From IMG/VR virus record IMGVR_UViG_3300029305_002672: 64,000 nt of DNA, one strand, 5' to 3'. Under the pieces are notes generated by a model, which was given only the letters and a program-made list of their open reading frames with translations, was not told where the DNA came from and ran no database searches. The DNA comes from an uncultured virus (IMG/VR IMGVR_UViG_3300029305_002672) (lineage: Duplodnaviria > Heunggongvirae > Uroviricota > Caudoviricetes). The number at the start of each line of letters is the position of its first letter. The stretch's first letter is position 1. Both the position numbers and the translations under genes were made by a program. Below, piece by piece: positions 2,443-25,611 of the stretch.

Positions 2443-4045
2443 ATGACTGACTACAAGACCCAAGCGACGCCGAGAGCCATGATAGGGGACATTCCCGTGT
2501 TTTGCTCTTTTGACGAGCTTGTGGACATCGAGAAAGTCATAGGCAACCCGAAGAACCCGAACACACACAGTAAGAAACAAGTGGAGCTACTCGCCAAGAT
2601 CATCAAGGCGACGGGCTGGAGAAACAACATCACCATCAGCCGCCAGAGCGGATTCGTGGTAAAAGGCCACGGAAGACTTGCAGCCGCCATCCAAGCGGCA
2701 TGTCCCTAAAGTACCTGTCGAATATCAGGATTATAGCAGCGAAGCGGAGGAATACGCAGACCTTACAGCTGATAACCGTATCGCCGAACTCGCAGACATG
2801 AACAACACCATGCTTGCGGACTTGCTGGCGGAGATCGACACGGGAGAAATCCCGCTCGAACTGACGGGATACACGGAAGAGGACTTCTCAAGCATCATTG
2901 ACTCAATTATAGGCGTTGACGATGCGGAGCCAAATGACCAGGATGACGAGCACGAGCAAGCCCTCCCACCCATGAGCAAGCCGGGAGACCTCTGGATACT
3001 CGGTCCCCACCGTCTGATATGCGGAGACGCGACGGACGAGGCGACCATCGACCGCCTTATGGACGGAGAAAAAGCCGCCATGGTACACACAGACCCACCC
3101 TACGGAGTGAGCTACCAGGGGGCGGCCAACAGCGGGAACTGGCAAATGATAAAGAACGATGACAAGACAGGGGACGACCTGTTCAATAACCTCTTACTAC
3201 CCGCATTCAACAACTACCGCAAACACACCATCCCTCAAGCCGCCTTCTACATCTGGCACGCAAGCAGCACGCGCCGAGATTTTGAAGACGCCATGATGCA
3301 GGCAGGACTCGCAGAGCGCCAATACCTCATATGGGCGAAAAACGGCATCAGTCTCGGTCGAGCGGACTACCAACACGCCCACGAGCCGTGCTTCTATGCT
3401 TGCAAGGAGGGGGAAGCCCCGAACTACTACGGAGATCGAGCGCAGCACACGGTCTGGAGGGTGACGACACGCCAAGACGGTCACATGATGACTGTACTCG
3501 GGAGCGGAGTCGTACTCACGGACGGTACCGGCGGAAAACTCTGTATCACGGACAAACCACCGAAAGGCAAAAAGATGCGCTACGTCCGCATGGAAGAGGG
3601 CAAGCCCATAGACTTGTATCGGGATGACCGAATGCAAACGGTATGGGAGGTCGCGAGGGAAACGGGATACCTCCACCCAACGCAAAAGCCCGTTGAAATT
3701 CCCGTGAGAGCCATCGAGAACAGCAGCCAGCCGGGCGATATCGTGCTGGACTTCTTCGGAGGGAGCGGTTCCACCCTCATGGGTGCCGAGCTGACCGGGC
3801 GTCGGTGCTTCACGACGGAGCTTGACCCCATCTATAGCGACGTCATCATTTCCCGCTACGTAGCCCAGACCGGAAACATCGGCGTGACCTGCATCCGCGA
3901 TGGTGAGGAGCTCGCCTACATCAACCTTGTGAAAGAATGGGCAAAGGAAAACGGGCAAGAAGAAACCGTGAACGCGATGAAAGTACCCGTCGTGGTCACA
4001 AAGAAGATTTTACAAGCGGCTGTAGAGCCGCAGAACGAGCCGTGA
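2443..4045 (+). CDS. ParB-like N-domain plus N6A/N4C DNA methyltransferase, joined by a +1 frameshift at CCC-TAA 2704-2709 (about 533 aa)
   Basis: ParB-N motifs (NPKNPNTH, VVKGHGRLAAA) in frame 0 continue as KVPVEY..ADNRIAE in the +1 frame. DPPY, HPTQKP and LDFFGGSGST are MTase motifs. Confidence 0.85.
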
Positions 4046-4058
4046 GGAGGTTATAGAC

Positions 4059-4574
4059 ATGGCAAAGGCAAATACACCAAAGCCGTGGGAACGGCAACCA
4101 GAAGAGACTCCTAAGCGATACCAAGCCTTCTGTACTTACCGAGATATGGGGGCTGAAGAACGGTCAATCCGAAAGGCAGCTGTCTTATTGGGCAAGAGTG
4201 ACACGCTCATTGGACGCTGGAGCAGCGAAGGCAAGTGGGTCGAGCGAGTCGCCGCCTGGGATGACGAGCAAGAGCGCATAGAGCGCGAGATCGCCCAGAA
4301 AGAGCAGGCCAAGGCTATCCGAGAAATGCGGAAGAGACACGCAGACCTCGCGAGTGCTATGCTGATTAAAGCCGCGAAAGCTCTCGCCAAAATACCCGAT
4401 GACGAAATCAAGGCAGGAGACATGACCCGCATGGTGGATGTCGGCTCCAAGCTGGAGCGCCTCTCACGTGGTGACGTCGGAGAGGTAGTCGAAGAGAGGG
4501 ATGGCGGTCAAGCCACACCTGCAGTAACATTTTATATGCCGGACAATGGCAGAGATAAGCATGAGGAGGAATAA
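4059..4574 (+). CDS. Probable terminase small subunit
   Basis: WERQPEET..YQAF..YRDMG..RSIRKAA..RWS...WVERVAAWD HTH-type pattern, a coiled coil, and position upstream of terL. Confidence 0.65.
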   Translation: MAKANTPKPWERQPEETPKRYQAFCTYRDMGAEERSIRKAAVLLGKSDTLIGRWSSEGKWVERVAAWDDEQERIEREIAQKEQAKAIREMRKRHADLASAMLIKAAKALAKIPDDEIKAGDMTRMVDVGSKLERLSRGDVGEVVEERDGGQATPAVTFYMPDNGRDKHEEE

Positions 4575-4580
4575 GGCAGC

Positions 4581-23262: not shown

Positions 23263-24160
23263 TTTATCGCATCACGCATACGACGTGATTATAGAAGTGG
23301 AGAAATTCAACCCTTACCACGATGCGAAGGGACGGTTTTCCACCGCGAATAACTCCGCATATTTCACTACTCACACGAAAGACCCCAAAAAGCAACATTG
23401 GGCAGACGCTGCCATTCTTCGTGAAAAGCACCGAACGGCTCAGATGACCCCTCCAAAACCCAAAAAGAACTACGACAGACTCGGATTCGCTGATTATGAT
23501 GACGCGGATTACCATCAGATGTACAACGGGCGGCAGTATTATCAAAAGCAGCAGCTTACGTCTTCGCAGCAGAAAGCCGCCGGGAGTTATCTGGAAGCCA
23601 CACCGGAGTCCGGAAGCCTGTACTCTCATAGCCAGAATTTGAATCAACAAATGGCTACAGGGCAACCGCTCACGGGGAAATACAAGCAAACGCACGACGG
23701 TCTGATGTCCGCTATGCATAATATCGGGTACAATGTCACCCTCACCAGATACGACCACGCAGGCATGGTCAACGGACTCCTGCAGGCGGTCGGTGCCGGT
23801 ACGAACTACGAGCGGATGACGCAGTCGAAGCTCCAAAAGGCGCTGGTCGGAAGAACCATAAACGAAAGCAAATTCCTATCCACGTCTTATAACGACTTCA
23901 AAAACGCACCGCAGAGCACGAAGCAGATATTCGATTCGCGAGCGGTGAAAATCAACTACAAAGTCAAAGCGAATACGCAGGCAATGATGCCGGGCAAGGG
24001 TGCCGGGGGAGACTTCGGCGAAATCATTCTTGCGCCGACCAACGGGATAGCCAACAGAGGCGGCATGATTACCGCCGTGAGGCTGACCGGGCAAATGGTA
24101 CGCCGCAAGGGGACGCAAACCTATAACCAGCCCCGCATTGAGATTGACATAGAAATCTAA
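23258..24160 (+). CDS. +1 frameshift extension: KFNPYHD leader + R-S-E-type (VIP2/C3-like) ADP-ribosyltransferase
   Basis: LTRYD, FLSTS and GEIIL catalytic-type motifs; no SD/start of its own; in frame after the CCC-TAA shift. Confidence 0.72.
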   Translation, partial: PNLSHHAYDVIIEVEKFNPYHDAKGRFSTANNSAYFTTHTKDPKKQHWADAAILREKHRTAQMTPPKPKKNYDRLGFADYDDADYHQMYNGRQYYQKQQLTSSQQKAAGSYLEATPESGSLYSHSQNLNQQMATGQPLTGKYKQTHDGLMSAMHNIGYNVTLTRYDHAGMVNGLLQAVGAGTNYERMTQSKLQKALVGRTINESKFLSTSYNDFKNAPQSTKQIFDSRAVKINYKVKANTQAMMPGKGAGGDFGEIILAPTNGIANRGGMITAVRLTGQMVRRKGTQTYNQPRIEIDIEI

Positions 24161-24178
24161 GCTGAGAGGTGAACCCAC

Positions 24179-24346
24179 ATGAAAAGAGATCAGCAATCAG
24201 CTCCGGAGGAAGGACCGCACGGTATCGACCGATGGACGTCAAACGGATACGGCCTGTGTATTGATGGCATAAAAGTCCCAAATCCGTCAGAAAAGGAGGA
24301 CGAAAATGGCAACAAAACTGAAAAACTTGCGCCTCACGAGCGTTGA
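24179..24346 (+). CDS. Small protein (55 aa), candidate ART immunity/antitoxin
   Basis: SD GAGGTGA; MKRDQQSAPEEGPHGIDRWTSNGYG..; immediately after the toxin-like domain. Confidence 0.5.
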   Translation: MKRDQQSAPEEGPHGIDRWTSNGYGLCIDGIKVPNPSEKEDENGNKTEKLAPHER

Positions 24347-25611
24347 CCTTGTGAGAGCGGGAGCCAACCAGGAAGCAGATATTTGTCTCTTCAAGAGCTT
24401 GGACGGTGCCCCCGATGAAGACCCCGCAGAGCCCACTAAGCCTACACGGACAGTAAGCAAGTCCGACCCCAACCGATACGACACCATCGTAGAGGTGTTC
24501 CCCTAACTCAGTCGAGAAGTTCAATCCATTTCACGATGCGCAAGGTAGATTCTCAAACAAGATGGGATTCAAGACCTACTCGGCCAACCCCAAACTGAAA
24601 GCTGCTCAACCATCTATCTTGAGAGCGGCTGAAGCCGGCCACGGTCGCACCCTCAACGTGCATCGGGAATCGAAGGGCGAAAGCATCACGCAGAATGCCC
24701 GGTGGCTGCAGACGGGCAAGAAACCGAGAGTCCCCGCGACGGTAAGTCGTGCGCGGTATCAGCAGAGGAAACAAAAGCAACAGCAAGCTTCGACCCAATC
24801 CGCTCAACCTTCCAGCCAGACAGCCACGCAGAAACCCGCCCAGAAGCCCCAAAATAAGCCCACAGGCGCACAAAAGCCAAAGGCAGACCAACAGCCAGCC
24901 TCACAACCCCAAAAGCCGACAGGCAGCGTTTTTGACGGCCAGGCGACCCACGCGGTGAACGGGAAAGACCTCACAGGTCAATTCAAGTTTGACAACAGCT
25001 CCTCAGCCTACTCAATAGAGCAGGTCATCAAGGCGCAGGGCTTTGACGGCAAGCCGACGGTGACAACCGATGCCGCCGCCTTCGCCTCAGCTTGCAAGGC
25101 GTCCAACTTCATCGCAAAGCGCGGTGTCGGAGCGTCGAGCCAAAGGACGATGGATGCTTATGATGATGCATTTGTAAACGGCGACTTCTACGTGAAGTGC
25201 TCCGGCGGGAATTACCATGGATACGGTATGTATGCCGCATCGGTCGCCGCCAACGGAAGTCAGGCCAAACACGGCATACAGCACGCGGAATCCACGGCTA
25301 ACTCCTATGCTTCCGGAAGAGCCAAAAAGGTGTATACCATGACGCTGGATAAAAGCGCCAAGGTCGGCACCGAGAGCAAACTGAAGAGCCAAATGAGCAA
25401 TGACACGGAGTATCAAAAGGTGTGCCGAGCCAGCAGAATGAGAAGCAGCTACACCCAAGACGTCGGCGTTTACGCCGCCTACAAGGGATATGATGCATAT
25501 ATAGCAGGGAGCGGCAGATCGACGCAAACCAGAAATGGATATTACTCCGACTACACCGTCATCCTGAACCGCTCCAAGGTCATAATCTATGACAGCAGCG
25601 GAGCGTCATGA
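24306..25611 (+). CDS. Scaffold/protease-like N-terminal tag (66 aa) fused by +1 frameshift at 24501-24506 to a KFNPFHD leader and a putative ART-like effector (about 434 aa)
   Basis: MATKLKNLRLTSVDLVRAGAN..ADICLFK; after the shift, NSVEKFNPFHDAQGRF is in frame with 24562-25611; KRG, GYGMYA, GYDAY and YTVILNR motifs. Confidence 0.7.

Follow-up and report, generated by a model that had tools for sequence, protein, structure and literature searches.

Several genes are known in which translation shifts to the +1 frame at a proline codon directly followed by a stop codon, and the papers cited here describe them as follows. The tail tube proteins gp17.1 and gp17.1* of phage SPP1 result from a +1 shift at CCCUAA, which was explained by the rarity of the CCC codon (PMC6316719). 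In the Listeria phages PSA, A118, and A500, the tsh gene is shifted to +1 at CCC_UGA, and PSA cps is a further case, with a pseudoknot (PMC5009743). The terminal UUC_CCC_UGA of Escherichia coli pheL directs 15% +1 frameshifting, which depends on the penultimate Phe and can be raised to 60% by adding a nascent-peptide stimulator of heterologous origin (PMC3082878). The prfB gene, which shifts at a different codon (CUU_U), combines a short zero-frame open reading frame (ORF), an internal Shine-Dalgarno (SD) stimulator, and a C after the stop codon (PMC5009743). Here, we describe four CCC-stop sites (sites 1 to 4) in a ~64-kb stretch of phage DNA (IMG/VR record IMGVR_UViG_3300029305_002672; referred to here as the window). 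We conclude that all four are very probably programmed +1 ribosomal frameshift sites of the Phe-Pro-stop "shifty stop" type (i.e., UUC_CCC_stop).

The window is a phage genome with 52% G+C content and nearly all of its long ORFs on the plus strand, as are all ORFs and sites described below unless noted otherwise. Profile searches identified genes for the terminase, portal, scaffold, major head proteins, and tail assembly chaperone. The phage and its relatives form a clade of gut phages; a megablast search of GenBank phages with positions 21600 to 25700 of the window gave no match. The hexamer CCCTAA occurs 10 times, always on the plus strand, which is not an enrichment (shuffle mean, 20.2; 99 of 100 shuffles contained at least 10), indicating that the signal resides in frame and homology and not in motif number. 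Only four of the 10 hexamers are in frame with a gene. A scan of the window for an upstream frame open over at least 30 codons and a +1 frame open over at least 60 codons recovered the same four, and no other, CCC_TAA cases, in agreement with the original prediction, in which these were the only CCC-TAA gene ends found. Two CCC_TGA cases passed the same scan (38621 and 50447), both located out of frame within longer genes as read off the ORF list. Ordinary genes of the window terminate normally at all three stops, and ~4 of roughly 90 genes carry the shift.

At each of the four sites, as in SPP1, the Listeria phages, and pheL, CCC (at 2704, 6590, 23257, and 24501) stands directly before the in-frame stop of the upstream ORF, and the +1 frame carries the protein on, collinearly with in-frame homologues. 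When CCCT is read as one step, uninterrupted proteins of 630, 828, and 434 amino acids (aa) are obtained at sites 2, 3, and 4, respectively. At site 1, the same reading gives a 219-aa N-terminal piece, and a further in-frame CCCT blocks the reading of the whole gene. The strings were present where they had been predicted (TGT CCC TAA A at 2701, TTC CCC TAA C at 6587, and GAG GTG cassettes at 23248 and 24492), and the transframe translations contain the predicted junction peptides GRFPNLR, EEVFPNLSHH, and VEVFPNSVEK. As far as sequence can tell, the central claim, a CCC-stop +1 shift shared by four genes that include nonstructural enzymes, is supported. The +1 body follows 90 zero-frame codons and has 445 codons at site 1; the corresponding values are 43 to 45 and 585 for site 2 and 66 and 368 for site 4.

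The sites were compared among five lineages, namely, A (the window plus several IMG/VR contigs identical to it), B (genome G005), C (genome G003 and a second contig), D (fragment L130), and E (G007, a 69.6-kb contig binned in a Faecousia metagenome-assembled genome, or MAG). The protein identity of the relatives to the window is ~60 to 76%. In total, 14 site-instances are conserved in the five lineages, and TAA, TGA, and TAG are all used as the stop. Site 1 reads TGT CCC TAA A in lineages A and B. Site 2 reads ACA AGG GGG CGT TTC CCC TAA C in A, B, and C and ends CGT TTT CCC TAG C in E. Site 3 is GAGGTG TTC CCC TAA T in A, TTC CCC TGA C in C, and GAGGAG TTC CCC TAG C in E; the corresponding gene of lineage B ends normally, without the fused module. 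Site 4 is TTC CCC TAA C in A, B, D, and E and TTC CCC TGA C in C. The residue after Pro tracks the stop, with TAA giving N (K at site 1), TGA giving D, and TAG giving S. At sites 3 and 4, the relatives carry GAGGTG, GAGGCG, or GAGGAG 3 nucleotides (nt) upstream, with the exception of site 3 of G003. The homologues are collinear over every junction without an indel. Regarding the conservation of CCCTAA, a check named in the original prediction, the CCC-stop arrangement is kept in the relatives, but TAA itself turns over. Close relatives are not uniformly in frame: the closest diverged ones retain the shifted layout at all four sites, and only more distant homologues are in frame. A zero-frame stop that is kept through such turnover is as predicted by stop-dependent frameshifting and is not predicted by sequencing error or by a decaying pseudogene.

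These data bear directly on the explanation that the sites are sequencing or assembly artefacts or mark dead pseudogenes. The window does come from a metagenome assembly, but this explanation is effectively refuted by the identity of the sites in several independent assemblies (i.e., IMG/VR contigs of different samples), by their retention with different stop codons in relatives at 60 to 76% amino acid identity, and by downstream ORFs of 299 to 585 codons that remain open, with ratios of nonsynonymous to synonymous divergence (dN/dS) of 0.09 to 0.26. The bases were also checked on contigs assembled from sequencing runs, and those of runs X5 and X6 showed 0 differences and 0 gaps over sites 2 to 4.

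The +1 ORFs are under purifying selection. The dN/dS was 0.25 to 0.26 at site 2, 0.087 at site 3 (versus G003), and 0.123 at site 4 (versus G007), in comparisons for which dS was 0.7 to 1.9 or saturated. A rival explanation is that each site arose by a tolerated one-base insertion at a naturally shift-prone CCC-stop, where the slip is real but incidental, leaky, and unselected and yields barely sufficient product. That explanation draws on in-frame homologues with strings only one insertion away (e.g., TTC CCC AAC ATG), on the 15% shift at UUC_CCC_UGA that occurs without being used (PMC3082878), and on a review in which the translational "correction" of indels is a named category (PMC5009743). 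We consider it unlikely. The stop has been kept through TAA/TGA/TAG turnover, and no reversion to the in-frame state was seen although dS ranges from ~0.7 up to saturation. In the cassette of site 2, with its SD-like element, synonymous positions are frozen (see below), and each of four lineages repeats the layout in three to four genes of its genome.

Site 2 lies in a C5 cytosine DNA methylase gene. Its zero-frame ORF (6464..6595) consists of 43 codons from GTG 6464 (45 from ATG 6458) plus TAA and encodes the methylase N terminus with the stretch FDGSGGF. The start is probably GTG 6464 and not ATG 6458, because ATG stands at the former position in the alignment of two relatives. The cassette ACA AGG GGG CGT TTC CCC TAA C (6575..6596) contains the SD-like AGGGGG at 6578 to 6583 and CCC at 6590 to 6592, and the 585-aa +1 ORF (6594..8351) encodes the remainder of the enzyme. 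Residues 4 to 149 of the transframe protein (P0007) matched positions 2 to 132 of PF00145, with the match running through the junction at residue 45/46 (132.7 bits against a cutoff of 22; downstream part alone, 111.4 bits). Among 80 viral loci of C5 methylases, 65 continue through the junction in a single frame, and the remaining 15 do not extend to the site. Most in-frame homologues have R(F/L/I)P-x-MKH(L/Y)G here; in the transframe protein of the window, RFP is followed, across the junction, by NLRHLG.

The nucleotide sequence of the site 2 cassette is conserved beyond its coding content. The 14-nt run before CCC is invariant in four lineages. Of 110 degenerate codons with the same residue in all four, only 26 are identical in all four, yet ACA, AGG, GGG, CGT, and CCC all are. 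No SD-like string was present at this position in the in-frame homologues (0 of 68), whose Pro codon was CCC in 22, CCT in 21, CCG in 15, and CCA in 9. A metagenome scan for the cassette returned five stretches, all of unrelated sequence with TGG instead of the stop, and added no lineage.

Site 1 lies in a gene for a ParB-like protein with an N6_N4 DNA methylase domain (PF01555; 86.8 bits; 2.7e-24). The zero-frame ORF (2437..2709; 90 codons plus TAA) is preceded by GAGGAGG before its ATG and encodes the first half of the ParB-like N-terminal domain, whereas the 445-aa +1 ORF (2708..4045) encodes the remainder of this domain and the methylase. The shift site, TGT CCC TAA A, is at 2701..2710 (CCC at 2704 to 2706). 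The upstream piece alone matched positions 11 to 95 of phrog_498 and 11 to 68 of phrog_620, and the downstream piece begins at phrog_498 position 101. The transframe piece (P0010) matched phrog_498 positions 11 to 229 (208 bits) and the ParB-like phrog_620 positions 11 to 154 (107 bits), each in one stretch, so that the break falls within the ParB-like domain. The ParB-like label comes from PHROGs, since Pfam gave no ParB family for the pieces or the transframe piece, even at an E value of 1. Both halves were present at 58 of 62 loci and were in the same frame at 56 of these 58; the two out-of-frame loci are those of the window's own phage and G005. An in-frame homologue, GHGRLAAAISAGMKQVPVEY, aligns at equal length with the window's GHGRLAAAIQAACP followed, across the junction, by KVPVEY. 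The shift string of G005 is identical to that of the window despite synonymous differences on both flanks.

Sites 3 and 4 lie in genes of the head module. The zero-frame ORF of site 3 (21673..23262) encodes a 529-aa polyvalent protein, with ART-PolyVal, 2H phosphoesterase, and XkdF-type S78_2 peptidase domains in one ORF; it is flanked on one side by a head-morphogenesis-type gene and on the other by the genes for the scaffold and major head proteins. Such polyvalent proteins have been proposed to be packaged and injected (PMC5512222); frameshifting is mentioned nowhere in that paper (Iyer et al. 2017; 0 occurrences). The cassette GAG GTG TTC CCC TAA T (23248..23263) leads into a +1 ORF (23261..24160) for a 299-aa cargo module that opens with the linker EVEKFNPYHDAKGRFS. 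The module matched no Pfam family, and a PDB sequence search at an E value of 0.01 was empty; a possible "ART-like" character is a reading of its motifs. The zero-frame ORF of site 4 (24306..24506) encodes 66 aa, of which residues 2 to 41 match the N terminus of phrog_17741. Its cassette, GAG GTG TTC CCC TAA C (24492..24507), leads into a +1 ORF (24505..25611) for a 368-aa cargo module opening with NSVEKFNPFHDAQGRFS, for which the PDB sequence search at the same E value likewise gave no match. As predicted, the SD-like GAGGTG is in place 3 nt before the shift codon at both sites, and AGGGGG is present upstream at site 2.

The cassettes of sites 3 and 4 are located inside a recurrent linker, (F/Y)DxIxEV followed by EKFNPYHDxxGRF. 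Where the linker is in frame, EV and EKFNP are not separated by the short insertion that the cassette represents, and the GAG GTG codons of the linker's EV serve also as the SD-like element. In genome G004, the two genes are simply fused in frame at both sites by way of this linker (containing IVEVEKFNPYHG). The linker core KFNP(Y/F)HDxxGRF occurs in four copies in the window, and the linker is found many times at module boundaries in the relatives. A viral scan with GAGGYGTTCCCCTRAC gave 16 hits: 7 are members of the family, and the other 9 lack long ORFs and match by chance.

If the downstream parts were instead made as separate polypeptides, by termination-reinitiation or from a noncanonical start, the four loci would be split genes whose pieces assemble or act alone. 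Starts in the +1 frame do exist nearby (TTG 2678, GTG 6615, TTG 23225, and ATG 24562), but no SD was seen before them, in line with the original prediction that the downstream parts lack their own. Moreover, the breaks fall inside single domains, with profile matches running through the junctions of sites 1 and 2, and homologues are as a rule fused in frame. Ahead of the first start, the +1 codons are also conserved as protein, as seen for NLRHLGS at site 2. At site 4, the first in-frame start codon (ATG 24562) is 19 codons into the +1 ORF, and the conserved linker is encoded by these 19 codons, which differ from those of G003 mostly at synonymous positions. We therefore regard split genes as quite improbable.

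The ribosomal slip, which we infer from the sequence, can be pictured as follows. With CCC in the P site and the stop codon in the A site, peptidyl-tRNA(Pro) would un-pair from CCC and re-pair with the overlapping CCU; AAN (GAC or AGC in relatives) would be read next, and the ribosome would go on in the +1 frame. Because CCC is the commonest Pro codon of the window (331 of 815; 41%), the explanation lies in the stop that occupies the A site and not in a hungry-codon pause. Candidate elements that may slow termination or favor the slip are the Pro-stop combination, the penultimate Phe at sites 2 to 4 (UUC_CCC_stop), a C that directly follows the stop (sites 2 and 4), and the SD-like elements, i.e., GAGGTG at 3 nt (sites 3 and 4) and AGGGGG at 6 nt (site 2). 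Site 1, which has CCC_TAA_A only, is probably the weakest of the four. A -1 slip could also re-pair at the run of four C residues, but the -1 frame closes within a few codons.

The same run is what an explanation at the level of nucleic acids would build on, with the frame restored through transcriptional slippage at these C residues, through editing of the RNA there, or through a mixed DNA population one base shorter. Four C residues are indeed present at sites 2 to 4; site 1, however, has only CCC, and site 2 of G007 has TTTT CCC. Known slippage tracts are far longer than runs of three or four C residues. Slippage also gives no reason for a stop that always follows directly, and contigs of independent runs show one form. 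Such a correction is very improbable.

Several points weigh against programmed frameshifting at all four sites. The five lineages make up one small clade, and the conservation of each site may go back to a single origin. Site 1 lacks both the Phe and an SD-like element and was seen in just two lineages. In prfB, the SD lies 3 nt from the shift codon; this spacing recurs at sites 3 and 4, but AGGGGG is 6 nt before CCC at site 2, and GAGGAG is 9 nt upstream at site 3 of G003. The argument made for SPP1, a pause at a rare CCC codon, does not apply where CCC is common. The 87 nt folded downstream of each site share no structure (z scores of -0.28, -1.26, -2.07, and -0.16), and a downstream RNA stimulator was dropped for this reason. 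Contigs of run X7, which are ~2% diverged, had one gap in 6419 to 7062 and three in 19339 to 24600; these gaps are unplaced and hence uninformative.

Two tRNA-based causes were also considered and rejected. A phage-encoded tRNA is not a candidate, as the window has only two tRNA genes, both tRNA-Thr(TGT), and no tRNA-Pro. A host without tRNA-Pro(GGG) was rejected because the Faecousia MAG has tRNA-Pro with the anticodons UGG, CGG, and GGG, although the link to this host is weak, given that the G007 contig may be merely a binned phage. Oscillospiraceae are candidate hosts. The tRNA-Thr(TGT) genes are located at 9372 to 9455 and 9907 to 9982, and one has a length of 84 nt. A stretch of ~530 bases between the two copies (9449/9455 to 9977/9989) is missing from contigs of runs X7 and X8, as if the copies had recombined.

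Heuristic gene lists of four genomes, which are related to each other and were built by crude gene calls from ORFs of at least 60 codons, contained 11 genes ending in CCC, of which 10 were frameshift sites, and 12 genes ending in other Pro codons; we draw no conclusion from these counts. In G007, a 90-aa ORF (C25; reverse strand, 59241 to 59516) just upstream of the frameshifted C5 methylase gene ends with AAC CCC TGA C, and the +1 frame after it closes after two codons. Thus, not every CCC-stop in the clade opens into a long +1 ORF.

Regarding biological purpose, the two kinds of genes would differ. For the methylase genes, the zero-frame products (43 to 45 and 90 aa) are domain fragments, and only shifted ribosomes would make the enzyme; with fragments as the unshifted products, the shift would cap or tune enzyme output. 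For the head-module genes, the shift would determine what share of the carrier is made alone and what share is fused to an effector module. Dosage control, as originally proposed for the sites, is a putative role. It is tempting, but in our view doubtful, to go further and regard the Phe-Pro-stop and SD-like elements as a portable cassette that acts as an obligatory gate near the beginning of the two methylase genes and as a setter of stoichiometry in the linker of capsid-delivered effectors. If this were true, methylase output would be set by the host's translational state and might respond to release-factor activity or to the status of tRNA(Pro), including its S-adenosylmethionine-dependent m1G37 modification, and exchangeable cargo modules would be joined to only a fraction of the carrier molecules. 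Methylase gates that are truly responsive would amount to a prfB-like sensor outside the translation apparatus and to the first recoding-controlled phage anti-restriction function.

Further features were seen around the head-module genes. The recurrent linker, ~(K)SDxxR(Y/F)DxIxEV-EKFNP(Y/F)HDxxGRF(S/A) in its extended form, is located at 21697, 23303, 24517, and 26250 of the window and in many relatives (L003 to L022); an N-terminal form reads TFDEILKFNPYHD. It marks the module boundaries of head-module effector proteins, gave no Pfam family in the scans made, and may be a processing or packaging signal for the adjoining XkdF-type peptidase. Behind the conserved site 4 cassette, G005 has a different, shorter module (170 versus 368 codons; ~36% identity over the aligned stretch), which suggests, from sequence comparison, that cargo is exchanged directly downstream of the frameshift signal. 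The next gene of the window (25911 to 27038) contains the linker internally and has, at its C terminus, a glutamine deamidase toxin domain of the papain fold (PF15644; 1.2e-16); it is a probable further effector cargo, fused in frame. Positions 2 to 41 of phrog_17741 (397 positions) correspond to the 66-aa ORF of site 4 (24306 to 24428), and positions 181 to 396 correspond to the separate gene at 27286 to 27948, which immediately precedes the scaffold gene. The N-terminal piece of phrog_17741 is instead located downstream of the cargo modules in phages L011, L014, L020, and L021. The arrangement suggests insertion of cargo modules after an ancestral N-terminal peptide.

A different kind of recoding may occur in the tail module. 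The XkdN-like tail assembly chaperone gene (PF08890; 34212 to 34760) ends with GCA AAA AAC TAA, in which the heptamer A_AAA_AAC directly precedes the stop (34751 to 34760). The -1 frame is open for ~75 codons (to about 34985), up to the tape-measure gene. This looks like the usual -1 frameshift of chaperone genes and would be the fifth recoding site of the genome.

The sites matter in several respects. Gene callers will split or drop such genes in metagenomic phages, and methylases and effector fusions would be annotated as fragments. The sites represent natural, evolutionarily tested combinations of UUC_CCC_stop and SD, parts that were earlier studied apart, and the four short cassettes with their natural variants (three stops, three SD forms, and one bare site) suit reporter assays. 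They would also make recoding a control point for phage anti-restriction enzymes and for the loading of effector cargo into capsids. Literature searches found no description of a CCC-stop frameshift in a phage DNA methylase or a polyvalent protein, and in the PRFect paper, methyltransferases and MuF/VIP2 ART pairs appear solely as cases that are predicted or possible (PMC10885494).

Compared with the systems described at the outset, the window resembles SPP1 in CCC followed by TAA, in the proposed slip of tRNA(Pro) from CCC to CCU, in a probable Gram-positive host, and in two predicted products sharing an N terminus; SPP1, however, is described with one site, at the 3' end of a structural gene, that adds a dispensable C-terminal domain (PMC6316719). 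Each genome considered here has three to four sites; two sites of the window lie near the beginning of enzyme genes, and three of its four are accompanied by SD-like elements. C-terminal extension of a complete structural protein is roughly true of site 3 only (529 + 299 aa). The Listeria phages likewise have CCC_stop shifty stops in Firmicutes phages and more than one recoding event per genome, but the genes described are only structural ones that gain C-terminal extensions, with no methylase or effector genes among them (PMC5009743). Sites 2 to 4 share with pheL the same triplet in the E, P, and A sites, UUC_CCC_stop. The pheL shift was judged incidental, with no known use for its +1 product (PMC3082878), whereas the +1 frame of the window encodes a conserved protein body.

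The likeness to prfB consists of a short zero-frame ORF followed by a +1 body (sites 1, 2, and 4), a stop in the A site, a C after the stop, and, as a candidate stimulator, an SD-like element just upstream (3 nt away at sites 3 and 4). In prfB, however, the shift codon is CUU_U and the stop is always UGA, which is read by the product RF2 and creates a feedback loop; the sites of the window use CCC_U and, across lineages, all three stops, and their products (methylases and effector carriers) are unrelated to termination, with no loop evident. The use of one shifty-stop signal in many unrelated genes has a reported parallel in Euplotes, a ciliate with altered termination, in which the sites are mostly AAA_UAA and about a tenth of genes are affected; +1 frameshifting at its stop codons is reported to be genome-wide (PMC4759687 and PMC5011710). 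In phages, CCC-stop +1 shifting is known almost only from single genes for capsid or tail proteins, to which it adds a C-terminal domain that is optional. For the methylases described here, the unshifted product would be a useless fragment, which would make the shift obligatory for enzyme synthesis, as in prfB. The CCC-stop type of shift is already known from SPP1, the Listeria phages, and pheL; what is new is its presence at three to four sites per genome and the obligatory early shift in enzyme genes.

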